From Marsupella aquatica (taxonomy: Eukaryota; Plantae; Marchantiophyta), in NCBI GenBank assembly GCA_973895155.1, contig OZ316898.1:20905292-20969291 (forward strand): a stretch of 64,000 nucleotides of DNA, given 5' to 3'. The notes beneath the pieces are model-generated. The model was not told where the DNA came from. It made no database searches and was given only the letters and a program-made list of their open reading frames with translations. Numbering within the stretch: position 1 is the stretch's first letter; every line of letters begins with the position of its first letter. This document shows, piece by piece, positions 11,094 through 64,000 of this stretch. The position numbers and the translations under genes were made by a program.

Positions 11094-11095
11094 CT

Positions 11096-11391
11096 TGTAG
11101 GAAAACCGTCAGCTCCAGACTAGACAACAATGCGGAACATGAGAGCACTCAATCTCACACTACACCAACAAGACACCATGATCATGGAGAAACTCCTGAA
11201 GGATCCATAGCTCATGAGATTGAACATGTGAAGAATGAGAGAGAGAATGCTCTCCCTCCAACCTATACCCCCCAAGGGGGACTAAGATGTGTGGGCCTAA
11301 ATAAGTGGATCTTATCCTAAACTAACAAGGGTTAATTAACCCTAGTAAGGCCAAACTAACTATAGTCAAGAACTCGAGTCAATTCCTAACA
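11096..11391 (-). repeat. Copia 5' LTR (296 bp)
   Basis: Near-identical to 5660-5956. Confidence 0.95.
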
Positions 11392-27135: not shown

Positions 27136-27154
27136 TCATTTGTTTTGATTGCAA

Positions 27155-31775: not shown

Positions 31776-32431
31776 TCACCAGTAATCACCACAAGAACAC
31801 ATCCCATCTTTAAAATGGTGGAACCGATTTGCATCCCTCGCAATAATCTCGCGTCCGGTCACCTTAGAAATATACTTGGTTGCTGAGTGGCAATCCGAAC
31901 ACCCCGAAGGTTCTTACTTACACGAATTGGTTCTCCCCAAGGTAGGTGCATAAGTCCGTAAACAATAGCCAACTTCTCACTATGAGAGCAAAGAGCTAGC
32001 TCTTTATCCTCCTCAGTCATATCATGCAACACAAGCCGGGTATCCGGAATGTAGCCTTCAGCCTTCAGTTTTTCACTCAATTTTTTCAGCTCAGTATAGA
32101 TCGCCTCCGCTTCTGGGTGAGATGTATCCCCCACAACAAATTCATGGATCTTGTTATCAACTTCAATCCAGCTACGCCCTGGCTCCTTCCAAACACCTCT
32201 CTCTTGCATCATAGTCCGCACAGATGACACCTTCTTCCACTTCCCGGCTGCGGCGTAGATATTGGACAGAAGCACATATGTAGAGGCCTTACCGGGCTCC
32301 AACTTGAAAAGCTCGTTAGCGGCCAGTTCGCCCAGCTCCACGTTACCGTAAGTTCGACAAGCCCCAAGCAAAGCTGTCCAAGTTACATCATTTGGTTCGA
32401 TCGGCATCTCACTGATGAACTGCTTTGCTTC
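31776..32431 (-). pseudogene. Truncated PPR-DYW paralogue: end of S2 plus E1-E2-DYW only, frameshifted
   Basis: Near-identical to the 3' ends of both intact genes from EAKQFISE onward. A 1-nt deletion near 31901 turns LRVCSDCH into LRGVRIAT. The PPR array is absent. Confidence 0.92.
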
Positions 32432-34828: not shown

Positions 34829-37740
34829 GTTTGTTTGTTTTTTTATCTTGAATGGAGTACTTTATTTAAAAGGAGAAGTAAAACCCAATAAAAAATGGGA
34901 GTAACACAGGCCAGACCCAAGACGAGTCACAGACCAACCGCAACACCAAGACCGAACACATTCAGCCAAGTGAGCAAAGGCCAAACAGGAGAAAAAGTGG
35001 AAAGCCACTAAACCGGCACCACTAACTACCAGCTAAGAAAAAACAGAGCACAAGCAAAACCGAGGGCAAAACTCAGACCAAAGCAACAAGGAGAGGCCCA
35101 GTAATAACTGACACCTGGCCTACTGCACTTCAGCGAAAAACCACAATGAGAGGGCTCTTCCAACTGTCAACCACTAACTACCAGCCCCACCCAAAAAGCC
35201 AAACATGCTTCAAGGTGGGTCAAATAACCACAGCGGAGTATACTCCACAATGAACAATCCATCAATGATCCGGAATAAGCCACCATCTCTCCCAAAGTCA
35301 CAAATCATACGCCCTCTAAGCTCCTGTCCCCCAAGAATAGGAGAATCACAAAGTTTTAAGCGACTAGAACTCTGAAGCCAAGCTAGTTTCATGTTTAATC
35401 TGAGTTCCCTCCAGATTTTGATCTGAATTCCTACTTCTGTGATTCTAGTCTGTTCCTTTTCTAGAGAACATCTAGCCTTCCACAAATTCCAGTTCGTAAT
35501 CCCTCTGAGCAGCTGCCAGAGCTTAAGTGGAATACAAGTACCCGTATGGGATAATGGTGCACGGATAATCGCCTGTGCAGCCGTCAGAGAGAACCGTGAA
35601 TTCTCAATCACCACTGCAGCAACTTTATAACCCAATTCCAGATCTTCTGAGAGTCCACACTACTCCATTGGCAGTGGATTGAGTCCTCATGCCAATCACC
35701 TTCAATCGTCCACACCACCATACAGCATCATTTCTAGAAAAAGGAATAACTACACCATTATCATCCTTACGAGTAGATCGCCTCCCAATGAAGTGTTTGG
35801 TTGCGAAAACCCTGTGTGCAATCTGCCATACGAAGAAGTTCACCTTCATCTCCCGATATGGGTTCCAGATATTTCTCCAAATAGTCATGTCATTAGGCAC
35901 CATGCTTAACTCATTCCTCCACTTCTGCAACCCAATTATCTCTGACTTCTCCCGGAGCTGAACCAATTGCCTTATACTAGCCGTCAACGCATGAAAGAAA
36001 TCTTTTCCATCCTGCCATAGGAATTGATGAGTAACCCCTACAATTTCATGAAAAGAACCTTTCAAGCCTAATCCCATCTTATGTGTACTCCAATCCTTTA
36101 CTTATTAAAAACCCACGAGTAGTCCTCACAACCCCATGTATGAATGGACATTTCCTTAATCCGTGATTGTAGCAGAATCTGTAGCGGATGATGCCCCTTA
36201 GAAATTGCAAACATAATAAACCTAGCCAATGCCGCCACCTGGTGTTCCATTGCAATCAACCCCACACCTCCTTCTGATTTCTTCTTGGAGAGAGTTCAAA
36301 AATCCATCCGATGCTGAGCTGAAGTATCTTGACCTGCCCAAAGAAAATTAATCAGCTCCATTTTAATGTTGTGCAACTTCCGGTCCGATCCACACAGAGA
36401 ATCAATAAGAACCATAATGATCCCATCAAGATATGGTTAACCACCAGCACCCTGGCCATGAAAGAAAGCTGCTTCAACCCAGCTTGAATCATTTTCTTCT
36501 CCAGTAATAATCTGAGTGATTGTACTGTATTAGCGCTATCAATCCCTTCCACCCCAAACAGGAAACCAAGAAGAGTGCAGTAATTTTCTAGGCCTTCCCA
36601 TTTCCATTTCAAATCAAGCAATTCAATAGGGATCGGATCGTTGCTCAATAGAATTGCCATGGCTTCATCCCAGTTGCACTCTAAACCAGATGCCTTAGCA
36701 AACGTTTGAAACACTTCTTGACAGATATCGATATTCTTTCTCTCTCCGTTAATGATGATAGTCGTGTTATCTGCATAGAATTGTTGGGCAAGATGCAGTC
36801 CAACCTTCTTGAATTTGATCCATTCCAACATACCCGAAGATGTCTTCTTAGTCATCAGACAGTCCAGCCCCTGAATAGCAATAATGAAAAAAAGCGTCGA
36901 TATTGGACATCCTTGCCTCACCGATCTAGTGATCTGAAAAGACTTCAATGCCTTCCCATTGATCACAATTGCCAATGATGCATTCTCCGTAATTGCCCTA
37001 AAAAATCTCAGGAAATTCTCACCAAAGTCCAATCTGATCAGCATCTTTTCGATAAACACCCATTCAACACTATCAAATGCCTTCACCACATCCAGTTTGA
37101 GACACGCATACAGGTCTGGTTCACACATAGCTTGTGCTACCATCTCATTGGTTAATAGAAGAGTGTGGTGCATCGATCTGCCCGACAGATAAGCATATTG
37201 TTGTGACGATATGATTTTAACCAGCACTCTTATTAACCGCATTTGAAATGCCTTTGTACCCACCTTATAGCTCACTGTTAACAGAGAAATGGGCCTCTTA
37301 TTTTCGATACAACACTCATCTCCTTTTTTCTTCATAAGAATGATTAACCCTTTGAGAAAGTTATTGCTGAACCGGCCCTGAGCAATACCAAGTTGAAGGA
37401 CTTTTAACAATAAGGGACCCAACTCTTCCCATAACGCTATGAAAAACTCCATTGACACTCCATCATGCCCTGGAGCTTTGAGTTTTCAAGAGCTTTAGTC
37501 GCCAGAAAGATTTTTGCCAGTGAGAGATCTGCTTCCAATAGCCATTTCTCTTCCTGCAAAATTCGCTCATGCACATTTCCCAAAATACAGTTCAGCTCTG
37601 CTTCAGAAGGACGGTGTTTAGAAGCCATAAGATTATAAAATTCCGTGGCTATTTTTGCCATATCCACCCAGTCACTCTGCATCTGCAGATCTGCATCATA
37701 TAGCCCTTTCAATTCCATAGACGCCACCCTTGACTTAAAA
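34829..37740 (-). mobile_element. 5'-truncated degenerate L1-clade LINE (RT, zf-RVT, 3' UTR, A-rich tail)
   Basis: KRPISLL, LKLDVVKAFDSVEW, SVRQGCPIS, FYADNT. On the - strand AATAAA is followed by AAAAAAACAAACAAAC at ~34829-34867. Confidence 0.9.
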
Positions 37741-39564: not shown

Positions 39565-42500
39565 TCACCAGTAATCACCACAAGAACACATTCCATCTTT
39601 GAAATGGTGGAACCGATTTGCATCCCTCGCAATAATCTCGCGTCCGGTCACCTTAGAGATATACTTGGTTGCTGAGTGGCAATCCGAACACACCCGAAGG
39701 TTCTTACTTACACGAATTGGTTCTCCCCAAGGTAGGTGCATGAGACCGTAAACAATAGCCAACTTCTCACTATGAGAGCAAAGAGCTAGCTCTTTATCCT
39801 CCTCATTCATATCATGCAACACAAGCTGGGTATCCGGAATGTAGCCTTCAGCCTTCAGTTTTTCACTCAATTTTTTCAGCTCAGTATAGATCGCCTCCGC
39901 TTCTGGGTGAGATGTATCCCCCACAACAAATTCATGGATCTTGTTATCAACTTCAATCCAGCTACGCCCTGGCTCCTTCCAAACACCTCTCTCTTGCATC
40001 ATAGTCCGCACAGATGACACCTTCTTCCACTTCCCGGCTGCCGCGTAGATATTGGACAGAAGCACATATGTAGAGGCCTTACCGGGCTCCAACTTGAAAA
40101 GCTCGTTAGCGGCCAGTTCGCCTAGCTCCACGTTACCGTAAGTTCGACAAGCCCCAAGCAAAGCTGTCCAAGTTACATCATTTGGTTCGATCGGCATCTC
40201 ACTGATGAACTGCTGTGCTTCCTCCAAGTGTCCCGCCCGCCCAAGAATATCCACCATGAGGTTATAGTGAACAACAGTACGCTCGATACCATAATCTTGC
40301 GTCATAGCTGAAAAGATTCTACGGCCATCATCAACAAGGCCTCCATGAGAACACGCTGACAACACAGCTATAAATGACGTCTCGATGGGCTTCACATGGT
40401 CTGCATTCATTTTTCTGAAAAGTTCCAGGGCTTCATGCCCATGTCCGTGTTGTGCAAGTCCACCGATCATTATGTTCCACGTGATTACATCGCGTTTCCC
40501 GAGTCTGTCAAAAACTTGTTGGGCGTCATCTATACTGCCACTCTTTGCATACATGTGAACGAGTGCGTTGCCCACACGCACATCCGACTCCAGTCCGGCT
40601 TTGCTTGCGTGGCCATGAACCTCCTTCACCCACTTCAAAGCCCCCGCACTTGCAGATGCATTCAGGATGCTCAGATAAGTAATTGCATCTGGTTCGAACC
40701 CTTCCAGTCTCATTTGGAGAAACAATCGATATGCTTCATACCCAGATCCATGTTGTGCAAGTCCCCCAATCATGGTAGTCCATGTGACAACATCACGTTT
40801 TTCCATTCTGTCGAAAACCAGTCGGGCATCATCTATACTCCCACTCTTTGCATACATGTGAATGAGTGCATTGCCGACACGCACATCCGACTCCAGTCCG
40901 ACTTTGCTAGCGTGGCCATGAACCTCCTTCACCCACTCCAAAGCCCCCGCACTTGCAGATGCATTCAGGATGCTCAGATAAGTGATTGCATCTGGTTCAA
41001 AGCCTTCCCGTCTCATTTGGAGAAACAACCGATATGCTTCATGCCCACATCCATGTTGTGCAAGTGCTCCTATCATTACATTCCATGTGACTGCATTGCG
41101 TTTCTCCATTCTGTCAAAAACCAGTCGGGCATCATCTATACTGCCACTCTTTGCATACATGTGAATGAGTGCACTGCCCACACGCAACTCCGACTCCAGT
41201 CCGGCTTTGCTAGCGTGGCCATGAACCTCCTTCACCCACTCCAAAGCCCCAGCACTTGTAGATGCATTCAGGATGCTCAGATAAGTGATTGCATCTGGTT
41301 CGAAGCCTTCCAGTCTCATTTGGAGAAACAATCGATATGCTTCATACCCAGATCCATGTTGTGCAAGTCCCCCAATCATGGTATTCCATGTGACAACATC
41401 ACGTTTCTCCATTCTGTCGAAAACCAGTCGGGCATCATCTATACTCCCACTCTTTGCATACATGTGAACGAGTGCACTGCCCACACGCACATTGGACTCC
41501 AGTCCGGCTTCGCTAGCGTGGCCATGAACCTCCTTCACCCACTTCAAAGGCCCCGCACTTGCAGATGCACTCAGAATACTCGCATAAGTGAATGCATCTG
41601 GTTCAAAGCCTGCCCGTCTCATTTGGAGAAACAATCGGTATGCTTTATGCCCACATCCATGTTGTGCAAGTGCTCCTATCATTACATTCCATGTGATTAC
41701 ATCTCGTTTCTCCATTCTGTCAAAAACCTGTCGAGCATCATCTATACTGCCACTCTGTGCATACATGTGAACGAGTGCATTGCCCACACGCACATCCGAC
41801 TCCAGTCCGGCTTTGCTAGCGTGGCCATGAACCTCCTTCACCCACTCCAAAGCCCCCGCACTTGCAGATGCATTCAGGATGCTCAGATAAGTGATTGCAT
41901 CTCGCTTGAAGCCTTCCCCTCTCATTTGGAGGAATAGTCGATATGCTTCGTGCCCACATCCATGTTGTGCAAGTCCTCCTATCATTACATTCCATGTGAT
42001 TACGTCGCGTTTCTCCATTCTGTCAAAAACCAGTCGGGCGTCACCTATCCTGCCACTCTCTGCATACATGTGAATCAGCGCAGAGCCCACACGCAAATTC
42101 GACTCCAGTCCGGCATTTCTAGCGTGGCCATGAACCTCCTTCACCCACTCCAAAGCCCCCGCACTTGCAGATGCATTCAGAATACTCGCATAAGTGAATG
42201 CATCTGGTTCAAAGCCTTCCCGTCTCATTTGGAGAAACAATCGATATGCTTCGTGCCCACATCCATGTCGTGAAAGTCCTCCTATCATTACATTCCATGT
42301 GATTACGTCGCGTTTCTCCATTCTGTCAAAAACCAGTCGGGCGTCACCTATCCTGCCACTCTCTGCATACATGTGAACCAGCGCAGAGCCCACACGCAAA
42401 TCTGACTCCAGTCCCGCTTTCCTAGCGTGGCCATGAACGTCCTTCACCCATGCCAAACCCCCATCACATGCGGATGCATTCAGGATGCTCGTATAGGTGA

Positions 42501-43371
42501 TTGCATTTGGTTCGAAGCCATCCCGTCTCATTTGGAGGAATAGTCGATATGCTTCCACACCATCACCACGTTCTGCCCATGCTCCAATCATAACATTCCA
42601 TGTAATGACATTTCGATTAGTCAACTTTTCAAAAACTTTCCTTGCCTCGGTGATGCACCCACATTTAGCGTACATCAGTACGAGAGCAGACCCTACACGC
42701 ACGTCCGATTCAAAGCCGGCATGTCGAATACCCTGATGAATTTCTTTTCCCCAATTGAGAGCTAATGGGCTTGAACATGCATTCAGGATGCTCAGATACG
42801 TGATCTCATTCGGCTTCACGCCTTCTTGGCGCATTAGATTGAAAATTTCGAGTGCAGATTCAACATGATCACTCCTTGCGTATCCCGCAATCATGCTGGT
42901 CCAAGTAATAACACTCTTCTTCTGAATTTGATCAAAAACACTACGTGCATCCGATAAACCTCCGCATTTGATGTACACATTCAAAAGCGTGATTGCCACA
43001 GATGGATTTTCGTGAATTCCACTCTCGATGATGCAATCATGAATTTGCTTGGCTCCTGAAAGGTCTTTCTGTTGCAAGCACATTTGCAGAACTTTAACAT
43101 ATGTGTACGAGTCTACGGCAATGCCTCGCTGTAGACGATCTTTCAACATAGCAATTGTTTGACCCGTGGTACCAGGATGCATACGCCTACTGCCAACCCC
43201 TTTTGCAGTGACTTGAGACCGATCTCTCGTGCAATAACTAACACTAGATGGAAATCTGCAGTGAGTAACCAAATTCGCCCTTGCCTTAACCCACGCTGGG
43301 GTTGACCATCCATCCACCCAAAGTCCTAGTCTTGTCAACTTCTGATTGAACTCAGGTGCTCTGGGCTTCCT
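39565..43371 (-). CDS. PLS-class PPR-E1-E2-DYW editing factor, 29 PPR motifs (main exon; start probably in an upstream exon)
   Basis: L-S-(P-L-S)x8-P2-L2-S2-E1-E2-DYW with intact HSEKLA, CSDCH and DYW. The track start at 43338 is TTG and the first in-exon ATG is 43182. A conserved acceptor (GACAG|AGG) lies at 43371. Confidence 0.93.
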   Translation of the reverse strand, partial: RKPRAPEFNQKLTRLGLWVDGWSTPAWVKARANLVTHCRFPSSVSYCTRDRSQVTAKGVGSRRMHPGTTGQTIAMLKDRLQRGIAVDSYTYVKVLQMCLQQKDLSGAKQIHDCIIESGIHENPSVAITLLNVYIKCGGLSDARSVFDQIQKKSVITWTSMIAGYARSDHVESALEIFNLMRQEGVKPNEITYLSILNACSSPLALNWGKEIHQGIRHAGFESDVRVGSALVLMYAKCGCITEARKVFEKLTNRNVITWNVMIGAWAERGDGVEAYRLFLQMRRDGFEPNAITYTSILNASACDGGLAWVKDVHGHARKAGLESDLRVGSALVHMYAESGRIGDARLVFDRMEKRDVITWNVMIGGLSRHGCGHEAYRLFLQMRREGFEPDAFTYASILNASASAGALEWVKEVHGHARNAGLESNLRVGSALIHMYAESGRIGDARLVFDRMEKRDVITWNVMIGGLAQHGCGHEAYRLFLQMRGEGFKRDAITYLSILNASASAGALEWVKEVHGHASKAGLESDVRVGNALVHMYAQSGSIDDARQVFDRMEKRDVITWNVMIGALAQHGCGHKAYRLFLQMRRAGFEPDAFTYASILSASASAGPLKWVKEVHGHASEAGLESNVRVGSALVHMYAKSGSIDDARLVFDRMEKRDVVTWNTMIGGLAQHGSGYEAYRLFLQMRLEGFEPDAITYLSILNASTSAGALEWVKEVHGHASKAGLESELRVGSALIHMYAKSGSIDDARLVFDRMEKRNAVTWNVMIGALAQHGCGHEAYRLFLQMRREGFEPDAITYLSILNASASAGALEWVKEVHGHASKVGLESDVRVGNALIHMYAKSGSIDDARLVFDRMEKRDVVTWTTMIGGLAQHGSGYEAYRLFLQMRLEGFEPDAITYLSILNASASAGALKWVKEVHGHASKAGLESDVRVGNALVHMYAKSGSIDDAQQVFDRLGKRDVITWNIMIGGLAQHGHGHEALELFRKMNADHVKPIETSFIAVLSACSHGGLVDDGRRIFSAMTQDYGIERTVVHYNLMVDILGRAGHLEEAQQFISEMPIEPNDVTWTALLGACRTYGNVELGELAANELFKLEPGKASTYVLLSNIYAAAGKWKKVSSVRTMMQERGVWKEPGRSWIEVDNKIHEFVVGDTSHPEAEAIYTELKKLSEKLKAEGYIPDTQLVLHDMNEEDKELALCSHSEKLAIVYGLMHLPWGEPIRVSKNLRVCSDCHSATKYISKVTGREIIARDANRFHHFKDGMCSCGDYW

Positions 43372-43552
43372 CTGTCAGCACCACAACCCACGATCAGATC
43401 TGCTACCAGGATAATATCCAGGAGATTCCACGAGGTGCAGAGAATTTGTAGTTATTTCTTGACGACTATGTTTCCAGTGATCTTTCTACAATGAGTGTTC
43501 AGAAATGGATAGCAGACCGGTAAGCCTCTCGAGTTCTAGGGTGCATTCCTAC

Positions 43553-48168: not shown

Positions 48169-48633
48169 GCATGCCATACCCTACTTTTGTGTGGAGAGTT
48201 GAATGGTATCCATTCTTGTTTCTGGATCCTCTTCACACATGCTTCCTGTTTATGCGCCATGTTAGTTTGGTGTGGGCGCTTGATTCCATAGGAATGATCC
48301 GGGTTTGCAACCGGACATTCTAGTTGTGCTACGTATTTCTCTCCTGGTGATGTTGGAGTGATGCCCAACACACCATGGTGAGTGCTTGTGGTGCTGACAT
48401 GGACAGATTGCCCTTAGGGTTAGCATATAGATTAGGTTAGGTTGGTCACCACAGCTTCTTCTGGTGCTGTTGGGTTACTCGATGGATGACGGACCGGTTT
48501 TACTCGGAGTGGGGTGCAATTTTGGCCAGCGGCATTGGTAGCAGTCAGCAGTGCAACTTCAGATAGTGATTCCGACAAGGACTCAATGACCAATTCTCCT
48601 TGTCATCAGGTGATTGCACCTTTGTTGTGGGAT

Positions 48634-51258
48634 ATGGAAGAGATGTACGGGGCTGCAAAGGGCCCAAGACGATACTCTGGTGCAGTTGGCACAATTGATC
48701 TGGATGAATTCATCCAGAAGTTTGATACGTGGTGCGATATGCAGACATTGTGTAACGCCATGTTGTTTACCCCTTTCATGGCATGGAAGGGATTATTTTA
48801 GCATTTGGAGGGGCCACCCATGGATGACTACCATGAGTTTCGGAAGACTCATTTGGTTGAAATTGAGGCAGCATTGGCCGCCTAATTACGTGTCCATCAC
48901 CTATGGCACTAGTGCGGTTGCCCAACCCATTGCCACAACTGCTGCTTCTTCTAGCAGCACTAGCCAGAGTGGCACACCATCCACCAGCAGCACTCCAACA
49001 GCATCCACCGCTACTCCTACCGGTGTGATTGTGACAGGGACTAGAGCTGCACCAGCATTTAACCCTGTGGTGGAATTCTTTGAGGTACTAAAGCAGAACT
49101 ATCAGGGTGTGAGAACTAATAAGTTGAAGGGTCTCCAAGAGTTTCAACGCAAGACTGGAGAGAGTTTGCGTGAGGCATACACTCGTATGCGCAGATTGAT
49201 CACTGTCACCAAGGGAGTGACAGAGGCTCAGGCAGTCCAGTTTTGGTATGCAATTCTGGATAGAGAGTTGCGACACAGAGTGAGAGATGTCACTCTACTT
49301 AGGGATGCAGATCCCACATTAGCAGTTGTTTTTACCCTTTCTGAGCGCATTGAGCTCAATATGGTGAATGAGAAGGTGGTGACTTCCGGATTTGCCAAGG
49401 AAGCACCAAAGGCTACATCTACATCCACACCACAGCCTACTGCACAAAAGAGCTAGAGGGAGAAGCCTCCTGCACAAGAGTCTACCAGCCAAAGACCTGT
49501 GCCCTCTTATGCTGGACAGTAGTCAGGATGTTGGACCTGTGGTGGGGATCATGCATAGAGATATTACCCAGATCATAGAGGATCAGGGGGAGCATCAGCG
49601 CCTGATCAGCGACAGTGTGATCACTGAGGAGCTTCTGGGCACACCAAGGATAGGTGTTTCTCACTCCATCCTGAGTTACGGAGAGGAGGATCCCGTACAC
49701 ATGATCAGGGAAGAGGAGGAGGTAGAGGTGGTGGACATGGTCGTGGCATGCCACATGCGGAGAGATAGGGAGGTGACGTTGCCCCTGCTGTAACCATAGA
49801 TCCAAAGGATACTAAGATTGCTCAATTGGAGCAACAGCCAGCTGCCATGGCTAGTTCCCAGGTGAGACCTACTTTTGGTGATGGGGCATCTACATCCTAT
49901 GGACCTTCCACATCCCATGGTCCTTCCACATCTTATGGAGCTGATGGAGACCTTGCCACCATGGGATTCATGTGTGGCACTACACTTATTGATGCATCAG
50001 CAGCTTTGACATGTGGGGCAGCCAAAGCTCTTGAGCCCCGAGGAGCAGTAGTGGAGCTAGATCCATAGAGGGGAGATGCACGTCGGCAGACAAAGCTTCC
50101 TCAGTCTTTTACATTGTTAGAGACAGTTCAGACTGTCTCTATAAACCCGGTTCGGACAAACCCTGGCATGGGTGAGTTGGCAGAATCAGGTAGTGATGCA
50201 TCAGGGATGACAAGTACCTTGTTGGGGGCGGCTACTGCCATGGTATGCGCCCCATTATTTTCAGTGACAGACATGCTGAACTTGGGAGTTGGTTTTGCAG
50301 AAGTGTTCATATTGGCAGCTACACTCTATGAGGACACTCCAGTGGTGGCTTCCCATGCAGAAGCAGCTTGCAGTGTTGAAGCAGTGAAGGCCATGCCACC
50401 TACTGCTACTAGTGAGACATGGCATGCAACAGCAACAAGGTTGGTGGATTTACCAGCACACCCTACATTTGAGAGGACTAGGTTTAAACCTAGTGTTGTG
50501 TCATTGGATAATCGGAGTGGTATCTTCTGATTAGTTGGGCCATCTGGAACAATATACCAGCCAGAGAGAGTGTTACTGGATACTGGTGCTTAGCCCTTGA
50601 TGTTGGGTAAGTCTGCCATACGTGGATTGGGATTGCGTCTAGAAGATTTGGAGGATTGTCCCTTTTCCATTCAGACTTCATTGGGGGGACCTACACCTAC
50701 ATAGCACATTACCAGGAGACCTCTTGATTTGAGGATTCAAGAAGGTCATACCACAGATAGCTCACAGATACAGGCACAAGCTATTTTGACTAAGGCAGAG
50801 TCATATGATGTGTTGGTGGGATGTACAGTGCTCTACCCCATGGGATTTATTCTTGATTTTTGGGAGGAATCAGTGTCATATAGACCTGATTGGCAATCAG
50901 GAGATGCTCGATTGAGCAAATTGCCAGTGAGATTTAGTGGACCTGTGGGAGACCCTATATCCACACCATTGTCTTTGGCAGCATTCAGTGGTGTAATTGC
51001 TGGACCTGATGATTTGCTTGAGGGTAATGCGCATGCAGCAGATGTTCCGCCATTGGAGGAGTCTCATGAGGAGCACATCATGCGAGGATTACCTGTTGGC
51101 AGTGTTGTGCCACCAGTGTGGGGCACTACACAGGCCTTGTCACAGGCAGCAGCACAATTGGTACATGATGCATGGCGTCATGCTTTTACACCACAGTCAG
51201 GAGTAGAGCAGTCTCTTGCAGATGGACCTGTGACTCTTTCACCATTGGATACCACTCC
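48634..51258 (+). pseudogene. Ty3/gypsy gag-protease relic, host of the giant-LTR insertions; resumes at 58194-58226
   Basis: IDLDEFIQKFDTWC and FQRKTGESLREAYTRMRRL (gag); CWTCGGDH and CDH*GASGHTKDRC (zinc knuckles); RVLLDTGA*PLMLG (aspartic protease). The frame continues PLDTT|PIAW*YPPEG across the TSD. Confidence 0.85.
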
Positions 51259-52739
51259 TGTGATGCCTAGCCAAGAATCACTAGGCCAGTGAAGTGGGGA
51301 AAACAGAGGTGTACCCTATAAACACATCAATATAGTAACAAAAACAAGGAAAATATAAACAACTAAGGGTGACTATGGAACCCGGGCCGAGGCTGGAGGT
51401 GAGGACATCGGGGAAGAGAACATGATTAGGGTTAGGGCGCGGTAAGCATCGGCGGCTAGGGGTAACCAATGAGAGGAAAAACCAGAGGAAGAGAGGGGTA
51501 AGGACTGCTCGCGAGGAATGGTGGTTCATTTGCAAGCACAAATGGGGCAGACGACTACGGAAGGTGAACTACTGTCAGCTGCTTAGGCAAGCACTCTAGG
51601 CGGGAGCAGATACCAACGATCAACTCAAAGAGGGTATGAGCAACGTCAATCAAGTAGCACATTTTTGGGGATGCCTGTTCGAACGGGCAACTGAGTACGT
51701 TAGGACTTATGAGGACGAAGAATCAGAGAGAGCAGCTCGAGAACGGCAGGAGCTCGCTCGACTATGGGAGCTGCAGAAGTCTGCCTTCTTAGGAGGAGAA
51801 CTCATCAAGGCCGAGTTCTTGTGGACTCCTACTGCCAATCAGCTCGATGACCTTCTATTTTGCGAAGACAGAATCGTCGGCATTTGGGAAGCCATCAACC
51901 GCTACAACAACGCGCACTGGGAGTTGAAGGGTAGCACGGAGGGGTGGACGAAGGCAACTATGCTAGGAGAAACATCCACGGCAACCGAGATGAAGAGGAA
52001 AGGAAACAACACCAAAGAGGCCACCCCGGCAAAAAGAACAAGGTCGGCGACACCAAGGAAGCCAGTAGAGGAGCAGAATAGGAGGCAGGTAGAAGCCAAA
52101 GAGGAGGAGGTCGATCCCATCAATGCCATTCCAACAAAGGATGACACTTGGAAAGGCTGGGTGGTGACCCTACCAGAGGAAGTGCAATTACATTTTGCAC
52201 GGGAGGAGGATGCATGCTTTACGGCCATGCAGACCAAGAAGTACCAGGATTTCATGGCCGGATCCGGCTTGGAAGCCTTTGTAAGATTACCATGGCTGAA
52301 GCCAGAGGTGCCGGACTTAGACTTATTAGAATTCGTGGGATCATGGGAACCCAAGACCAACTCCACGAGGGTGTATGGGAAGGATTTCTATCTCACTCCC
52401 CGGGTGATTGCCGAGGTGTTTGGCTTGCCGATGGGTAATAAGACCAAGGTTGATACCAGGAAGACCTTACCTGACAAGGAGTTCCGGTCGTTCCCAAGAC
52501 CATCAACGAAGAATGGCTTCTTCCGGAACACCTGCACCAACTCGCACATCGGAGAGATGATCGATTTCTTGCGGGTGACCATGCATTGTAACTTGCCGAG
52601 GGCAGAGATCGGCAAGGCTCAGGTCTACCTGGCAGAAAGGCCAGACCCAAGCCGGGATTACAACGGGTACCTCCTCAACCAATTGAAGAAGATCTTGAAG
52701 GAGGAACAGCAGGTGATCGGCGTGAGAAGCGTGTCCCGG

Positions 52740-55233
52740 TGTCCGGGGACCAGTTTAAAGCAGTATAAAAGTAGACTTTTTAATACTTTTAGGGACTTGG
52801 ATTTTCATAGTATTTCCTTAAGTTGGTTTAATCTTTCTTAATCCTAATCAGTTTCCATTTTAAATATGAAATTACACTAAGCTATTTTAACCTAAAACAA
52901 TAACTTTCTACTTTCATCTAAATTCGATGCATCACTCACATTTCCATAACAATTAAACATTTTTACCACAAGAGCATTTTATCATTTTGATCACATAAAA
53001 TAATTCAAACTCAACTTTTTATTTCAATCATTTTCAAAATATGAAGTTTGGTTCGGGTTTACAAAGTGTTTTTCGGTGGCTAATCTCCTAATTCAGGTCT
53101 CTCTACTAAACTCAGCTCAATCATCAGGTCAGGTCTTGGTCTCAAGCTCATTGATGGTTTCCCCCAAACATGTTGGACACAATTTTAGTCTCCGCCGAGC
53201 TTCCTTCACGTTGTCGTTCCTCTTACACTCTTCTTCTTGGCTCTTCTTCCTTTGCTCCTCAAGTTTCCAGTCCCATAGCAAAAAGAATTTACGGCCGCTA
53301 TCCTCATACCCCATGGCAACGGACTATCCCTAACCTAAAGATGGATCCAATCACCGGGTTCCACTCGTCGAATGTAGTCAACTTCCTTATTCTAAATTCA
53401 CAACACAACTTCAAACCTAAGGTGGTCGGGATGATCCATAATTCAAGTTGAAACTTCTTTACTAATTTCATAAATGGCTCATTTTTCTCCTTGTAGCACC
53501 CTAGAAGTTGAGTTCAGCAAAAATAAGTTAATCCAATGGCTCTTTTAACCTCCAATCCTTGATCTCCCTTTCTGCAGCTTGTTTCCCTCTTCTGAATTCT
53601 GAACTCTTCTTATTCATCTCCCGTGGTATGTATCCATCATTTAACCTTCCTTATGAACATTTTTATCAATGGTAAACTCACCTCTTTCCCTTTTCTTTTG
53701 TTCAAACTCAGCTTGCTTAGCTCACATTAGTCTCAGTATAGTTCTCAATGAGTTCCGTTCTTTACTGTTCTCTTTTGTCCTCTGTTCAACAATGTTCATT
53801 ACTGTTCTGAGATTTTCTGATAGACCTTCTTTTCAAGTCCCATAGCCTACTTCGTTTGAAACAAAAGTAATCCGTCCATCACTTTGCGAAGCGTGGCCAT
53901 TCCCTTCCTTTCACCTCCTTTTTCTGTGCTTCCCTAAGCCACTGGCGTTCTACTCACTTTCGACTTCTCTGCCAACGTTCGATTAATGTCTTCTCCTCTC
54001 ATCCGTTTCACTATCGTCCCTCAGATTCGATTCGAAAACAGCCGGAGAAGATTCAAATCAACCATGTTCTTCCGTCTCTCTCAGCCGATCATCGCTCTCA
54101 TTTCAGCTCACGATTGCCATCTTGCCCTGCACTCTCTGATCGGTCAAAAGCTTCAATAACACTGCTAATTGACGTCTTCGGGAGCAATCTTGCTGTGTAG
54201 TCCTTTGCGTCTAGCAGTCCAGTCTCTCTTTTCATCAGCCTGATCTCTTCTTTTACTCCATCTCAATTCTTGCCAGCCAAAAAACTGCTGCTGAATTCAG
54301 CCGGTCCTTGTTTCACTCCATCTTGATTTTTCATTATTCGCCCGGTCTTTGCACTTCCTTGCTTCCAAAATCCCACGAATAATCTCTCTCAAAAACTGTT
54401 GACATTCGATTGCTTCTTCTCAATCATTCAAGAGATCTTTTAATAGCTTTAACATTCAGCAGCGCTCACCCTGTTCATCCAAAAAACGAGATCTCCTTGT
54501 TCATTTGAGAAAATCCTCCACAGCCCTTCCTTATCATTCGAGAGAATCCACCACACAGCTCCCATGTTCTGCCGCTCGCGCACTTGTCATCTTTTCTTCT
54601 CAATCATTCCACGAATAATCTCTAAATGAAACTGTCAACATTCGACTGCTTTGTTCTCACTTTCTCCGAACCTCCATCGCGTACAACAGCCTTCACTCCA
54701 GAATTCCCAAAAAATTCATCCCTGCCACGACCATTCTTCTCCACCAAATATAGCTTGTTCACCCCGAAGATCTCCTAACAGGTCTTACGATCGGCAACAC
54801 TTCCCCTTTTTCATTCACTTCCCAAATCTTCCAATAATCACACGACACTCTGCCAACATTCGGCCGTTTTCCTTATCTCCCTCCTGAACCTCGATTGCGC
54901 CTCACTCTCCTTTCCTCTACTCCTCGCGAACTTCCTCCCTAACTTCCTTCTTTGATCGACCATTATTTTCCTCCCGATCCTCCTCTTCGCGTCTCACTTT
55001 GAATCTGACCCTTATGAAATGTGCTCACAGGATGCCACGTGTCTCAACCACAATAATTGTCTCTATTTCCTTAAGTCTAAGCTTCAACTTTCACTTGTTT
55101 TATTCCTCTTTTGTCTTTTTGAACTTTCTCCAACACAACAAAACTCACACCAAAACTGAATCCCTTCACCAAATATTTCCAACTCAAGAATAAGGCCTTC
55201 ACTTCCTTTCCTCTATTATCCATCCCGACGACA
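52740..55233. mobile_element. 2494-bp solo-LTR-like insertion with 4-bp TSD CCGG
   Basis: TGTC...GACA ends; CCGG at 52736-52739 and 55234-55237. The empty site (GTGTC-GCGG-CTTGG) is visible in the paralogue at ~59695-59708. Confidence 0.9.
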
Positions 55234-55965
55234 CCGGCTTGGCTATCACATGCTGCTGTTGTGCCGTTATGCCCAAAGTCAAATCTTTGCCCTAGTACTT
55301 CCCCTATCGGCAAGGGCACCGGAGGAGGTTTTGGAGCAGAGGCCAGCAACAGAAGAACCCAACCAGCCTGCCAGTCCTACGATCGAGCAGATGTTTCGGC
55401 CAAGGAAAGAAGAGTTACCGATGCAGCAATCAGGCATGCAGAATCTGCTCAAATTGCTGGAGAAGGAGAGAACGGCACCGGCAATGGCAACGGCACTGGT
55501 ACAGGACACTGCCCCAGAGGCCGGCCTAAGCCGAATCAGGAGGGAAAACCCCTTTACCGGAGTCAAGGAGAGAAGGAGGCCGGAACACAAGCCGGGAGTT
55601 TGAATGTATGTGGGAGCCTCAAGCCCCGAATCGGAGGCAGAGCAGCCTAAGGCTCCTTCCCACGGAAAGCAGAGGGAGAGGACAGCTTGGAAACCAGAGG
55701 AGGAACTAGAGCCCATGATCTATGAGGCAGTTTTCACGGCAAGACCAGGGGAACAGAGGGGGAAGCCGAGAGTCCAAGCAGTGGAGGAGGCGGTGGAGGA
55801 CTACAACAATGATAACTCCGGCTATGGGTCGGATCATCATGTTCCAGGAGTAAGGACCTATGGCCGGTTTATCCCCACGCTTCCACGAGTAGTTCGAGGG
55901 GACCCCACCCAGCAAAGTAGCCCCGAGTCTCCCCCACCAGAGGTTGCTCCCTCGAGCTTTGACGG

Positions 55966-57709
55966 TGTCGTGAAGTCCGTGGGCGATGTCAGGAAAGCCC
56001 GGGCTTCTGTCTGTCGGAAGAACAATGTGCTACGACGTGCTAATAAAACACTACGATCATTACCCGAAATCGTTCAATTGTCATGGGAACAACGAATGGA
56101 ATCGGGGATGAAATGATCATGGTATATGCCGACTCCCCAAAGTTTCTGATGATGAAGGCTCAAAACTCAGTTTTTTGGCGACATATCACCCGAACATTAC
56201 AATCTATACTAAAATTAGGCCTAGGAACTCTATTGAGGTCCATCTTGTAATTTAGAATCACGGTACAAGCTTCTTGAACATAGGAAATTCACCTACGGTT
56301 GTTAATTTCCTTTGTACCATATCAAACAAGCCAAGTATTTACTATCCTATCATCCCTCAAAGGTTCGAGTCAAAACTCTATCTCCATCAATAGGTACAAA
56401 GAACAATGGTGGACCTATCTAGATTGCAGGCTACGAAGACCCTGTCACCGTCACCATACTATATATCTCACTTAAAGATAGATATACCCTCAAAACTTTT
56501 TCCTAGGCATGACATAGCTTCTTATCTATTTCCAGGATTTTTTTTATAAATATGCATCTTATTCTAGGAAAATATTATAAGCAATATTCAAACTCAGAAA
56601 AATATGGTTCTATTTGAGCATAATCTAAACCTTCAAGTCATCATAACTTTCTAGTATTATACCAAAATCAAGTGATTCCAAAAGCAAACTTGGTGTGCTC
56701 ATCAAGGTGATCAAAGTTAGAATACTATTTTCCTAAGAAAAATATATCATAATAATTTCCTATATAGTACAACCTTTACTATTTAATAACTTTCTAACAA
56801 TGTCACATCCCTAGCTTCCAAGCACATTCTATGAATTCTTATACTCCCCACACTATTCTTGCACATAAGTTTGGAATAACAAAGAAACTCACCATGCCAC
56901 CCCCAAGGGGCAGGCCTCTTATTTATAGTGCTTTGGAGGGGTAATGACTCACCCCTTTGGTACACATGGTCCAATAATATTTGAACATGTAAACAACAAG
57001 GTGTTTGGATGCTATTGGGCATGTTTCCATGCGTATCCTCCTTTCGACACCTAATTGGCCATGTGTTTGATTCTAAATGGACATGCAACCATGCAAGGCC
57101 TTTTTACACATGTATGCCACGTATCCCTATATATTTTGCTATATCACAAATCTAGTGGAAAAGTAAAGCCACCTAGTAGGCCTATACTCTAGTTTATGAT
57201 AATTATTCATATAGCCCACAATACTTTATTTAAAAGTGCTTTGTCGTCACTCTAACCCATCATAGGATGCCTAAATTTTGTAACTAGGCATGATGAATCA
57301 CCAAACTAGCTATTATGTTAAAATATAAAAACATATAACCCACTTATGTGTATATGTAAGTGTGGGTAAGAACAAAGGTTGAGCGGATTCTTCAACCTCC
57401 CGAAGGAATCGCACACCAAAGTGATGCACGATGAATTGCCGAAAATAAACTTTCTCCATAACCCAAAACTGAAATTCAATGTGATTTGGAAATCCAACTG
57501 GCGCCCCGTGCACTCCATCCATTGTTGCTTTCTTGCCTTAGAGTTGTTGCCTCCTCCTCTCGTTCCTCGTTTCTTTATGAATCGGCAACCCGCTACAAGC
57601 ATAGGTACCCGACTTATGGTCTTATTTGTCATCTTAAGTCGAGATGTTGCAAACCCAAAATATACCCGTGTAACTTAGGTGTACTATTTGCACCAAAGTT
57701 ACCACGACA
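55966..57709. mobile_element. 1744-bp solo-LTR-like insertion with 4-bp TSD ACGG
   Basis: Perfect 7-bp terminal inverted repeat TGTCGTG...CACGACA; ACGG at 55962-55965 and 57710-57713. The empty site (TTCG-ACGG-CATAA) is at ~60349-60361. Confidence 0.92.
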
Positions 57710-58226
57710 ACGGCATAAAGCAGACGGCACAAGATTTTCAGGATCGATTTAGGGAGGAAGAGAAAGCAGCCCTGACACAAGAGAAAGATTTACCAGGAGG
57801 AGATTGGCCGGAGGACATCAGGCGGCTTGCCAAAAAAAGAAGCAACCCTCTTGCCACCATAGAAGAAATCCGCAAGGCGGCTTGGGAACAGAGGCCACGG
57901 TGGTTGATGCCGATGACTTCTACTTACTCCACCTATGCTAAAGATAGAGCCATGGAGTACGGGGAAATGTGTGGAGATCTTGCGCTTAGCATCTTTGGGG
58001 AGGAGTTGGAGCAGGGACCCTTTTTCCAGAGGGAGATGTATACGTGTGTAAAATGTTAATAGTAGTAGAAGGAGAGTTAGCAACGTCCCATGCCGCTAAA
58101 CCCCGGAAACGGCCTCGCCGAGGACAAAACCTACGGGAATCGGCTTGAGCAAGGGAGTTTTCTTGGGTTTGGGGAGCCATGGGACGCACCACAACTCCTA
58201 TTGCTTGGTAGTATCCACCGGAGGGT

Positions 58227-61200
58227 TGTGATGCCTAGACAGGAATCACTCGGCCGGTTAAGTGGGTAAAGCAGGAAGGCACCCTAGGAACACCTTAGTA
58301 TAGTGACAAAACAAGGAAAATATAAACAATTAGGGGCAACCATGGAACCCGGGCAGAGGCCGGAGGTAAGGCTGAGGGTGAAAACCCGATTAGGGTTAGG
58401 GCGCGTTAAGCGTCGGCGGCTAGGAAGGATCAACGGGAAGAAGGACCGGCAGAGGAGAGGGGTAAGGAGCGCTTGCAGGAGATGGTGGCTCATTTGCGAG
58501 CACGAACTAGGCAGACGACTACGGGAGGCCAACTACTGTCAGCTGCTTAGGCAAGCACTCGGGGAGAGAGTAGATACCGACGATCAACCTAAGGAGGGTA
58601 TGAGCAACGTCAATCAAGCGGCACATTTCTGGGGATGCCTGTTCGAACGGGCAACTGAGTACATCAAGACTTACGAGGACGAGGAGTCAGAAAGGGCAGC
58701 TCGAGAACGGCAGGAGCTCGCTCGATTGTGGGAGCTGTAGAAGACGGCTTTCTTAGGAGGCGAACTCATCAAGGACGAGTTCCTGTGGACGCCTACTTCC
58801 AATCAACTCGACGATCTTCTGTTTTGCAAAGACAGCGTCGTCGGCATCCGAGAGGCCATCAAGAACTGCAACGACATACACTGGGAATTAAAGGGTAGCA
58901 CGGAAAGGTGGACCCGGGCAACGGTGCTAGGAGAAACCTCCACGGCAGCAGAGATGAAGAGGAAGGGAGCCGTCAACGATGAAGCCACCCCGGCAAAAAG
59001 AACGAGGTCGGCGGCACCAAAGAAGCCAGCCGAGCAGCAGAGCAGGAGGCAGGGAGAAGCCGAAGAGGAGGAGGTCGATCCCATCAAGGCCATTCCAACC
59101 AGGGATGACACCTGGAAGGGCTGGGCGGCAACCCTACCGGTGGAGGTGCAACTACATTTTGCACGGGAGGAGGATGCATGCTTTACGACCATGCAGACCA
59201 AGAAGTACCAAGGCTTCATGGCCGGATCCGGCTTGGAGGCCTTTGTAAGATTACCATGGCTGAAGCCGGAGGTACCGGAGTCAGACCTATTAGAATTCGT
59301 GGGGTCATGGGAACCCGAGACCAATTGCACGAGGATATATGGGAAGGATTTCTATCTTACTCCCAAGGTGATTGCCGAAGTGTTTGGCTTGCCGATGGGC
59401 AATAAGACCAAAGTTGATACCAAGAAGACCTTGCCTGACACGGAGTTCCGGTCGTTCCCCGGGCCATCAACGAAGAATGGCTTCTTCCGGAACACCTGCA
59501 CCAACCCGCACATAGGAGAGATGATCGACTTCTTGCGGGTGACCATGCATTGTAACTTGCCGAGGGCAGAGATCGGCAAAGCACAGGTCTATCTGGCAGA
59601 AAGGCCAGACCCAAGCCGGGACTACAACGGGTACCTCCTCAACCAATTGAAGAAGATCTTAAAGGAGGAGCAGCAGGTAATCGGCATGGGGAGCGTGTCG
59701 CGGCTTGGCTATCACATGCCGCTGTTGTGCCGGTATGCCAGAGGTCAGACTTTTGCCCCGGTACTTCCCCTGCAGGTAAGGGCACCCGAGGAAGCTCCAA
59801 CGCCGAGGCCGTTGGCTGAGAAGCCTCAACCACCTGTTAGTCCTACGATCGAGCAGGTGTTTAGGCCCAGGAAGGAAGACTTGCCGATGCAGCAACCAGG
59901 CATGCAAAGTCTGCTGAAACTACTGGAGAAAGAAAAGAGATCGGCATCGGCAAAAACAATGGCAACGGCAACAATGCAGGACACTACTACAGAGGTAGGC
60001 CTACACCGGCTCACAAGAGAAAACCCCTTTGCTGGAGACAAGGAGAGAATCAGGCCGGAATCCAAGCCAGGTATTCGAATGTACGTGGGAACCTCAAGCT
60101 CCGAATCTGAGGCAGAATTGCCTGAAGCTCCTACCGACGAAGAGGAGAGGGAGAAGCCGGAAATCCAAGAGGTAGAGGAGGCAGTGGAGGACTGCAGCCA
60201 TGATAATTCCAGCTATGGGTTGGACCATCACGTTCCAGGAGTAAGGACCTGTGGCCGGTTTGTCCCCACACTTCCAAGGGTAGTGCGAGGGGACCCCAAC
60301 CAGCAGAGTAGCCCTGAGTCTCCCCCACCAGATGTTGCTCCCCCGAGCTTCGACGGCATAAAACAGACGGTGCAGGAATTTCAGGAGCGAATCAAGCAGG
60401 AGGAAGAGGCCGCCCTGGCTAAGGAAAAGGATTTACCAGGAGGAGATTGGCCGGAGGACATCAGGCGGCTAGCCGAAAAAGGAAGCAAACCTCTAGCCAC
60501 GATTGAAGAGATCCGCAGGACGGCTTGGGAGCAGAGGCCACGATGGGCGATGCCGATCACTTCTACTTACTCCACCTACGCTAAGAATAGAGCCATGGAG
60601 TATGGTGAGATGTGTGGGGAACTTGCGCTCGGCATCTTTGGAGAGGAGTTGGAGGTAGGACCCTTTTTCCATAGGGAGCAGTTGGAGAAGCACCAATTAG
60701 AAGAAGCGGTGGCTTTAGAGAGAAGCAAGAAGGACAAGGTCATTCGGCGGCTTAGGAGGATGGAAGCCGAGATTGAAGATCTAAGGGCGGCCAAGAAAGC
60801 CCAAGATGAACTGCGGATTAAACGACATGAGCTGAACATCATGCAGGGGCAGTTGGACGCCGCGCAGGCTGATAATCAGAATATCAAGGATAAACTGACT
60901 CAGACGCAGGAAGAGTTGGCCGACACGATCAAAGAAAGGGAAAAGTGGAAGCAAGAGCTGAAGAATACAGAGGAGGCCCACATAACAGCCAACAGCCGGG
61001 CCATGGCGGAGACCCAAAGAAAGGAGTGGGCGTTGAAAGGGGAGCTCGAGAAAATCCGCGGAGCCCTTGAGCAGAAGGAGGTCGAGTTAGGGAAATCCTA
61101 TCAAGGGATTATGGCGCTGCAGCAGGAGCTTGCGTCCCTGACGGCCAGCTTCAAGGCCGACCTAAGGGAGAAGGACGAGATGCTCGAACAGACTTACGCC

Positions 61201-62862
61201 AAGATGAACCAGATGGAGTCTGTCATCATTGCAGAGCTCGACAAGGAGCTAAGAGCAACCCAGGAGGAGAGGGCTACCTTGAAGAAGGAATTGGAGGAAG
61301 CCCACAGGGAGCAGGAGGAGGCCAAAAACGAGCTGGAGGGGGCACGTAAGGACCTGGATGAAACCCAAGAGGAGTTGGAGGAAATCACGAGGAAGATGGA
61401 GAACCTACAGCGGCGGGCCGACAACCAAACAGAGCGGCTGAAGAAACAAGCCGCAGTATTTAAATGCTTAGCTGCAGCAGGTCCATCTCCCGTTGGGACA
61501 AACCAGTTACCAAGGGTGGTACTTGCCGAAGGACAAGCCGCGCCACCTGCACCAGTGCCGGAAGTAAGTGGGAAGGGGAAGGGACCAGCTGCCGAGCCAC
61601 CAACGAAGAAGAGGCGGAAACCTTCAGGGTCAAGGAGTAATACGACTTCACAGGCCGTGGTGATCAAGGAGGTAGACCCAGCACCGACCCCAGACAGGGT
61701 CACGGCTAAGGATCCAACTACCCTAGGGGAAGGGGAGGCCGAAGCCGTGGGAGTGGCTGAAGCCGAAGCCGTGGGTATTGCCGAGGCCGGTGTCGAGGCT
61801 GAAGCCGAAGGTGGACCCAGTCAGGCCGATGGAGAGTTGACTCGGTCAAGGGCAGGTAATCTGTCAGTAGGCGGGCCAACGGCAGTGGCTGAGGAGGAAG
61901 TGTTGGGGGCGTCCATTGAGGATCCACCACCGGTGTCGTGACGGTGCAAGGGCGCCGTTCCTTTTAGGGAGGGCGGACGTGGAGGGAGGAGGCGTGAGTG
62001 GGCAGGGCGGGCACGGATCTCCACGTTTAGGATTAGGATCAGAACCAGGAGCGGCCCTGACACTTAGCTTAGTGGGATTGCGGTCCCACTGGTAGGAGCA
62101 ACACTTGTGCTCCTGCCTTGCTGTACATAGGTAGATTCGGGCAAGTAGATTACTGTTAAGTAGATTAGGCTTACGATGCAAAGAATGGCGGATCCACTAC
62201 CAGGATAAGTACCTGGGCAGCGGGGAGCTCAGGGCCTCTTCTTTAGCAAGTTTTTAGTTTGCACCAGCCGGGCTGGGATCAAGTAGTACGAGAAGCTCTC
62301 GGTTAGTCATACAGTGACCCTTGTGTATATTCATGTTTCCTCATGCCTAAGAGCTGAATAGAGTTGGCCTCACGGCTTAGTTCGCAGAACTTGTGTATGA
62401 GATGTACTGTTTGTATGGCAAGTGCATGGTATGACTCAGTCAGAATGAGTCATTTTGCTATTTGTGTGTCGCATTAACTTGTGTGAAGAGTGCCCACATC
62501 AACAGAAGGAAGGAAAGTAAGCAGGGGAGTGAGAGTTGGATGTGTCGAGCTGAGAGAGGTCTTAGCGGCTTAACCAAGCCTATTGGGGATCATTCCGGCG
62601 GCGGAATCCAAACATACCTAACAAGACGGAGGGGAAGACAGGGGAAGACAGGGGAAGGCCTATATTAGGCCGGCTACGTATCTCATGACCCGATGAAGGA
62701 TCTGTCCAGTATATGTGTGTAAAATGTTAATAGTAGTAGTAGAAGGTTAGCAGCGTCCCATGCCGCTAAGCCGCGGAAACGGCCTCGCCAAGCACGAAAC
62801 CTGCGGGAATCGGCTTGAGCTGGGGGGTTTCTTGGGTTTAGGGAGCCATGGGACGCACCACA
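58227..62862 (+). mobile_element. 4636-bp 5' LTR of a Ty3/gypsy element (copy 3); the element runs off the window
   Basis: Same termini as the TSD-flanked solo copy; followed by TTTT, a PBS and gag. Confidence 0.93.
58342..61941 (+). CDS. LTR-internal ORF of 1199 codons with one internal TAG (58738-58740): basic N-terminus, plant-mobile-domain-like segment, long coiled coil
   Basis: The ATG is conserved in copy 2 and the TAG is CAG there. Over 1000 codons are open downstream of the TAG. LLEFVGSWEPETNCTRIYGKDFYLTPKVIAEVFGLP resembles the PMD core W.PET...G...T...GLP. E/K/L-rich heptads at ~60680-61450. Confidence 0.75.
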
Positions 62863-62866
62863 TTTT

Positions 62867-62884
62867 TGGCGCTAGATGGAGGGG
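62867..62884 (+). promoter_or_regulatory. Primer-binding site, probably tRNA-Asn
   Basis: TGGCGCTAGATGGAGGGG, complementary with one mismatch to the plant tRNA-Asn(GUU) 3' end ...CCCTCCTTCTAGCG-CCA as I recall it. Confidence 0.8.
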
Positions 62885-62931
62885 GCATTTCTTAAGCCGT
62901 GAGATATGAAGTTAGAACGGAAGCGTAGGTA

Positions 62932-64000
62932 ATGACTGACCTTACGCCGAGGGAAGAAAGAGTGATTCAACGGGAGAGAGCTCGACTGCAGCAGCTCGCC
63001 GGGTGGCATGATACACAGCGACTGAGAGGGGCAGAAAGAGCTGGTAGCTCCGAAACTGGAAGTGGCGTCGAAGAAGACATACCAGAAGAAGAGTCGGTAA
63101 GGAGAAGTGAGTCTCCAACCGACATGGGGGAACCAGAGGCACGGCCAGACGAGAGGCCAGGGACCAGATTGAGCCAGCGGTCGCGCATACATTACAAGGC
63201 ATTTCATGGGAGAGGAGATGAGGATCCGGACGAATGGTTGGATGATTTCGAGGGAACCGCTGCAGCAAATGGAGAATCGGCCATCAAGATGCAGATTCTT
63301 CCCGGCCTGTTCAAGGGTGAGGCTAGGCCTTGGTACAGAGCATTAGATGTGGAAGATCAAGCCATCTGGGATATCTTCAAAACACTCTTTGTTAAGGAGT
63401 TTCGACCCATTGGAACTTCAGAACTAGCAGTGCTGAAGTTGGGACAACTTCGGTTCAAGGAGAACAAATCCTTCAGGAAGTTCTTGCAACGCTTTCAGAA
63501 ACTGGTAAGACGTACAAAGACCAATGCATCTGAAGGTATGCAACTTCAATGGTTGGTGAATGCTTTGCCACAGAAGATGAGTTTTGCAATTAGGAAGGAG
63601 AACCCGGAGACTTTAGCCGAAGCAATTAAGGATATTCAATTATACATTAATGCAGATATCACAAGCCGGAAGAAACAGCTTAAGTCTGAGAGTTCCTCAT
63701 CAGAGGAGGGATCACCCCATAAGAAAAAAGATAAGAAGAAGAAACATTCCAAGAAGTCTAGAAGTGATAAGTCAAGCTCGGATAGTGGGAGTAGCAAGAG
63801 TGAGTCATCTTCTAGTTCTGAAGAAGAAAAAACTAGGAAAAGGAAGGGCAGAAGGAGAGGGAAGACGAAAGTCAAGATGGAGGCTAAGCCACCAGATAAC
63901 ATCGTAGCCCTTACCGAGCAACTTAAGGCTATCATTGCAGAGGTAAAACCAAAGAAGAAGGTAGTACAGGAGGATAGCTCTGTATGGTGTGCCTTATGTT
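62932..64000 (+). CDS. gag: Ty3/gypsy Gag, open to the window edge (absent from the ORF track)
   Basis: MTDLTPREE...YKAFHGRGDEDPDEWLDDFEG...LFKGEARPWY...WDIFKTLFVKEF...NPETLAEAIK..., ending VWCALC (start of a zinc knuckle). Confidence 0.92.
   Translation, partial: MTDLTPREERVIQRERARLQQLAGWHDTQRLRGAERAGSSETGSGVEEDIPEEESVRRSESPTDMGEPEARPDERPGTRLSQRSRIHYKAFHGRGDEDPDEWLDDFEGTAAANGESAIKMQILPGLFKGEARPWYRALDVEDQAIWDIFKTLFVKEFRPIGTSELAVLKLGQLRFKENKSFRKFLQRFQKLVRRTKTNASEGMQLQWLVNALPQKMSFAIRKENPETLAEAIKDIQLYINADITSRKKQLKSESSSSEEGSPHKKKDKKKKHSKKSRSDKSSSDSGSSKSESSSSSEEEKTRKRKGRRRGKTKVKMEAKPPDNIVALTEQLKAIIAEVKPKKKVVQEDSSVWCALC

Follow-up and report, generated by a model that had tools for sequence, protein, structure and literature searches.

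Can the long terminal repeat (LTR) of a plant retrotransposon hold a protein gene that is kept by selection and, if so, what would its product do? The question is raised by 64,000 nucleotides of the liverwort Marsupella aquatica (contig OZ316898.1, positions 20,905,292 to 20,969,291; from this point on, the window), near the end of which a 4.6-kb unit with a long open reading frame (ORF) stands ahead of the gag gene of a Ty3/Gypsy-type element. Plant LTRs are usually viewed as regulatory DNA that codes for no protein, and solo LTRs as dead relics; a selected LTR gene of 3.3 kb alters both views. We put at roughly 55% the probability that this Gypsy LTR holds a gene under selection, some 1,113 codons long, whose nuclear, DNA-binding product is an accessory protein of VANC/plant mobile domain (PMD) type that would shield the family from silencing. 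The underlying architecture, a Ty3/Gypsy-type retrotransposon with the unit as its LTR and a selected gene inside that LTR, is held with high confidence.

The 4.6-kb unit as an LTR

Contigs of four sequencing runs (X1, X2, X5 and X6) were compared with positions 57900-64000 of the window, three of the four covering the left end. The stretch or parts of it are present in 13 runs from nine studies, none of them listed as RNA, with half or more of it in five of the 13. The main features of the element and of two further copies of its LTR, all on the forward strand, are as follows.

58222-58226 (+): AGGGT, the 5-mer at the left target site of copy 3, with the right-hand partner outside the window
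58227-62862 (+): 5' LTR (copy 3), 4,636 bp, TG...CA, recognized by sequence comparison, varied flanks among runs and a purine tract in X6
62867-62884 (+): primer-binding site (PBS), beginning with TGG at 62867, 4 nt (TTTT) past the LTR end
62932-64000, leaving the window (+): gag, PF03732 (Retrotrans_gag) E 2.7e-10, PF19259 E 1.6e-4
51259-58193 (+): copy 2, a solo LTR with target-site duplication (TSD) ACTCC, two nested inserts, and without the stretch matching 60679-62708
2762-4689 (+): copy 1, an older 3' LTR fragment (coiled coil to end), cut at its 5' end and with no PBS behind it

A sequence-only reading of the window had proposed that the unit behaves as an LTR and that one copy is followed by a PBS and gag, and both proposals are borne out by copy 3. 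Its ends, TGTGATGC...GCACCACA, form a short inverted repeat that is complementary at seven of eight positions. Position 58227 is reached from unlike flanks in four contigs of X5 and four of X2, and position 62862 exits into unlike sequences in two contigs of X6. The empty site is also represented, with 12 contigs of X2 and one of X5 crossing the copy 3 flank and continuing without the element. In X6, which is another organism's run, one contig covers the junction of unit, PBS and gag (62809-63068) with a single difference. Another X6 contig, extending to 58496, has a purine run one base ahead of the TG, the arrangement expected where a polypurine tract precedes a 3' LTR, although this is a single observation. 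Summed depth over the ORF relative to gag is 3.3, 3.9, 4.5 and 10.4x, and that over the non-coding LTR part 2.8, 4.9, 4.9 and 7.3x, depth ratios not being equal to copy numbers.

The gag is of Gypsy type, with PF03732 above and PF19259 below the Pfam cut-off, and the PBS is one that we take to be tRNA-Asn-like. The 5-bp TSD and the extra ORF fit a possible place in the Athila/Tat (OTA) lineage, as the PBS would if it is indeed of tRNA-Asn type. A tRNA-Asn PBS is reported for 12% of Athila, 15% of TatII and 4% of Retand elements (PMC6317226), and Tat elements without aRH have been described in liverworts (PMC10508981, PMC13468544).

Copy 2 does stand between perfect ACTCC repeats, as had been claimed, and keeps both LTR ends, yet it is not a clean solo LTR, as it carries two stops and two nested TG...CA insertions and is missing 2.0 kb. 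These insertions (52740-55233, 2.5 kb, and 55966-57709, 1.7 kb) are unrelated and solo-LTR-like, and their 4-bp TSDs, CCGG and ACGG, fit the NCGN target preference reported for moss Phygy elements (Neumann et al.). Copies 2 and 3 are hosted, 33 bp apart, by an older gag-protease-like element (about 48500-51258 plus 58199-58226), the motifs of which were read by eye and have no Pfam match. The empty-site continuation of this older element resembles, again by eye, the start of cytosine-methyltransferase motif I.

A reading frame under purifying selection

The gene and its surroundings within the LTR of copy 3 are resolved as follows, codons being numbered from 58342, the start of the frame given in the sequence-only reading.

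58321-58328 (+): TATA-like box TATAAACA, a putative promoter for the LTR gene; copies 2 and 3 are identical here and diverge in the adjacent sequence
58342-58599 (+): codons 1-86, probably 5' leader, with two stops in copy 2 and one out-of-frame ATG at 58482
58600-61941 (+): the gene inside the LTR, with 1,113 codons when counted from Met87; a stop interrupts it in copy 3
58600-58941 (+): N-terminal small domain, codons 87-200, matching P0005 and weakly P0019
59092-59745 (+): core helical domain, VANC/PMD-like by weak leads, 18 of 20 search matches
60352-60678 (+): second conserved block, codons 671-779
60700-61470 (+): long coiled coil, with sub-threshold coiled-coil Pfam matches only
61942-62862 (+): non-coding 3' LTR part, T-rich, with a TGTA-rich stretch (about 62230-62480) as candidate poly(A) region

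The sequence-only reading had treated 58342-61941, or 1,199 codons, as a single sense frame. It is not one open frame because a TAG at codon 133 (58738-58740) splits it. This stop is private to copy 3: codon 133 is sense in copy 2, in 373k of 380k depth units in X1, in 307k of 320k in X2, and throughout X5 and X6. The longest open frame observed is 1,066 codons, versus 380 codons over 200 shuffles.

Comparison of the copies by the ratio of nonsynonymous to synonymous change (dN/dS), which had been suggested as a check, gives 0.27 (0.21-0.33) for copies 2 and 3 over 765 codons of this frame and not a value near 1; when the sense frame is shifted, the values are 0.73 and 1.08. Without codons in CG/CHG context the value is 0.16 (398 codons), and against copy 1 it is 0.38 (0.26-0.53; 278 codons), all such values being pairwise counts that include post-insertion decay. 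Between copies 2 and 3, dN/dS is 0.90 for codons 1-86, 0.15 for 87-200, 0.72 for 201-250, 0.13 for 251-454, 0.31 for 455-670 and 0.16 for 671-779; the core domain as a whole is likewise listed at 0.13. In codons 251-454 (0.08-0.22), differences number 10, 10 and 33 by codon position, in agreement with the earlier remark that these copies differ mostly at synonymous sites in the central domain. Among the 12 of 18 indels listed for the four runs, 10 fall behind the ORF (in 61942-62862) and two within it, both in its last 80 bp. These results show that the LTR ORF evolved under purifying selection and, since the copies compared are all LTRs, the constraint acted while the gene sat in the LTR.

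Because the ORF lies inside the LTR, both LTRs of an insertion receive a copy, and solo LTRs do as well. The notion that the gene is doubled in each insertion and left in each solo LTR is thus correct for the DNA, while none of the three window copies holds the gene intact. Copy 1 retains the coiled coil, as had been noticed, and also the stop codon that ends the ORF in copy 3.

Codons 1-86 give no sign of constraint in this frame (interval 0.45-1.75), and several observations suggest that translation begins behind them. The TATAAA at 58321, 94 bp inside the LTR, is the only match to TATA[AT]A in the LTR and has no variant listed in three runs. In maize, TATA boxes peak at -32 (PMC13192763), which would put the transcription start near 58353, past the ATG of the earlier frame. 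The next in-frame ATG, Met87 at 58600, is where constraint begins. It is probably the true start, giving 1,113 codons (72% of the LTR), and the previously suggested protein of about 1,200 residues is probably wrong. Within codons 1-86 a shifted frame has a dN/dS of 0.34 (0.17-0.64; copies 2 and 3), yet is stop-rich, and a short out-of-frame ORF runs from 58482 in both copies. The segment 58342-58599 is possibly a constrained leader or an upstream ORF.

TGTA motifs play a role in plant poly(A) regions. Four occur in the 250-nt bin at about 62230-62480, versus none or one in each of the other 18 bins. The GATAA(A/G)TA box at 62204, kept in copies 1 and 3, had been put forward as a TATA box; the sequence in copy 3 is off the TATA consensus. 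Another TATA-like site, at 62661, is absent from copy 1. The TATA box at 58321 is a candidate for either of two roles, a private gene promoter inside U3, in which case gag RNA might begin at a second promoter near 62204, or the promoter of an LTR with a short U3 and the gene in R/U5, gag RNA then beginning at 58353.

Kinship and function of the LTR-encoded protein

Protein genes in the U3 region are familiar from retroviruses, where sag of mouse mammary tumour virus and nef of human immunodeficiency virus are duplicated in each provirus and are far shorter. The gene described here is like these in lying inside an LTR, and no shared feature was seen beyond that; a place in U3, as the sequence-only reading had it, is one of two possibilities. 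The encoded protein, which has distant relatives, consists, in order, of the small domain, the core domain, a linker, the conserved block, a coiled coil of about 250 residues, a basic KKRRK patch (codons 1089-1096) and an acidic low-complexity tail. By language-model features, the core bears a tentative resemblance to the ATHILA ORF-1, Transposase_32 and PMD families (0.87-0.89 and 0.83-0.84, all under 0.9). The only fold match over the whole core, itself a weak lead, is VANC21 (PDB 9LNK), a DNA-bound anti-silencing factor, at 9% identity. These leads point to a VANC/PMD-like rather than a sag-like protein, and kinship with the PMD/Transposase_32/ATHILA group is probable. An env-like ORF was considered and rejected, with no transmembrane segment found and a highest 19-residue hydropathy of 0.98.

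Two points weigh against this assignment. No ATHILA ORF-1, Transposase_32 or PMD profile in Pfam is matched up to E 10 by the core domain and 27 alignment members, and the gene is part of an LTR that precedes gag and not of a Mutator-like DNA transposon, which leaves it outside the VANC class by location. A search for tandem target motifs found no 6-8-mer enriched in four non-coding stretches of the LTR.

In the history that we propose, an Athila/Tat-type 3' accessory gene would have been taken into the LTR as the polypurine tract, the site of second-strand priming, moved upstream of it, and would then have been copied into both LTRs and retained in solo LTRs. Any LTR of the family, paired or solo, could serve as template, with transcription driven by the TATA box at 58321 and terminating near 62400 in the TGTA-rich stretch. 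The protein would form dimers through its coiled coil and, by binding of its core to family DNA, would relieve repressive chromatin in trans. Such a nuclear anti-silencing role is the most likely one, ahead of integration targeting or scaffolding, though we place it slightly below even odds. More tentatively, this may be a bryophyte Gypsy family whose LTR includes a full transcription unit for an anti-silencing gene of VANC/PMD type, each solo LTR starting as a trans-acting source that keeps the family active.

Four other explanations were weighed, two of which concern a genuine gene. The same gene might lie in R/U5, with the TATA at 58321 as the only LTR promoter, a U3 of about 120 bp, the gene as first cistron of the genomic RNA, and gag reached by splicing or poly(A) read-through. 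We consider this possible, while leaning away from it. The box is conserved and without a second match in the LTR, copy 1 has lost the TATA-like site at 62661, and both spliced transcripts and transcripts confined to LTRs are frequent in maize (PMC13192763); however, a minus-strand strong-stop DNA of 4.5 kb would be required, and the conserved box at 62204, just ahead of the TGTA-rich stretch, would agree with a short R of the classical kind close to the 3' end. It is likewise conceivable, if doubtful, that the protein has a different function, for instance directing integration into other retroelements or forming a particle scaffold through its coiled coil. The lodging of copies 2 and 3 within one older element, the X2 contigs that connect the LTR end to other sites of the same LTR, the length of the coiled coil, and the existence of Athila ORF1-type proteins without known function (PMC7264820, PMC6317226) are all compatible with this. 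Nested insertion is, however, common without any targeting protein, and the sole whole-domain fold match is to an anti-silencing factor.

The remaining two would deprive the ORF of a role in the LTR, or the unit of its identity as an LTR. That the ORF is a passenger, captured or formerly internal and no longer mattering, is unlikely: the lack of an intact copy in the window would fit, but constraint was measured between LTR copies, the stop is restricted to copy 3, and the listed indels spare all but the last 80 bp of the ORF. Still more improbable is that the unit is an independent mobile element lying next to a PBS by chance. In its favour, the window stops in gag, short of any 3' LTR for copy 3, and no contig among the four runs spans a whole element (two LTRs around one gag-pol). 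Against this view, the junction with PBS and gag recurs in another organism's run, a purine tract precedes the unit there, self-comparison of 58227-62862 finds no internal repeat, terminal or otherwise, and the unit has no transposase or reverse transcriptase match.

Relation to known accessory genes and other features of the window

Additional ORFs of plant LTR retrotransposons have been placed in the internal region (PMC7264820), and no plant LTR-resident ORF was found in the titles, abstract openings and passages of the literature searched. As a caveat on novelty, Neumann et al. class extra ORFs just as 5' or 3', with sense ORFs in TatII at 23% 5' and 26% 3' (PMC6317226), as would be seen if some of the genes were LTR-borne. 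A selected gene within an LTR is a variant of the known accessory-ORF theme, with a location that seems to be new.

Athila ORF1/Transposase_32 (PF03078, PF20167) resembles it as a sense extra ORF of a Gypsy element with a 5-bp TSD (PMC6317226 supplements 4 and 5) and is among the tentative look-alikes of the core, and nuclear signals are reported for the sunflower protein (PMC11728184). Athila ORF1, however, is a sense ORF of the 3' internal part (166 hits; PMC6317226 supplement 4) and 487 residues long in sunflower (PMC11728184), compared with 1,113 residues inside the LTR and no Pfam match here. PMD-A of Ogre and Transposase_28 of Retand are also Gypsy-borne accessory domains, and some Retand/Ogre ORFs match SMC-type coiled-coil profiles (PMC5418596, PMC6317226 supplement 4); these are mostly antisense, listed 3' of the polyprotein and angiosperm (PMC5418596, PMC6317226), whereas ours is sense, in the LTR and bryophyte. 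VANC21 of VANDAL21, the best fold match, has a coiled coil predicted to dimerise; VANC proteins come from eudicot Mutator-like DNA transposons and bind tandem motifs (PMC10398659, PMC13547354), whereas no such array was found in the LTR here. Retrosat2, RIRE3 and RIRE8 share LTRs of >3 kb, many solo LTRs and an extra ORF under selection, but their ORF0 lies upstream of gag-pol, apart from the LTR, in the chromovirus lineage (PMC3485330).

A gene in this position is liable to be missed or annotated as a host gene. If the VANC-like lead is true, it offers a testable case of retrotransposon anti-silencing and a way to learn what Athila/Tat accessory proteins do, and would extend the VANC/PMD fold to retrotransposons beyond the angiosperms, the group in which both PMD and VANC had been reported. 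If the LTR gene is indeed anti-silencing, the host's route of retrotransposon removal, through solo LTRs, would spread counter-defence.

Elsewhere in the window, PLS-type PPR-E-DYW genes are clustered at 19067-22654 (+), 31174-32602 (-) and 39565-43374 (-), comprising two long ORFs (1,195 and 1,269 residues) and one fragment, with 303-bp repeat units in inverted orientation; genes of the PPR-DYW kind are indicative of a land plant. A decayed Ty1/copia element at about 5659-11391 (-) has 298-bp LTRs that are 97.7% identical, together with pieces of gag, integrase and reverse transcriptase. A reverse transcriptase ORF fragment at 36352-37485 (-; RVT_1 E 1.3e-23) has no link to the LTR family. 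Tandem-repeat arrays occupy 26655-28372, and an 850-bp local duplication pairs 27156-27999 with 28409-29221.
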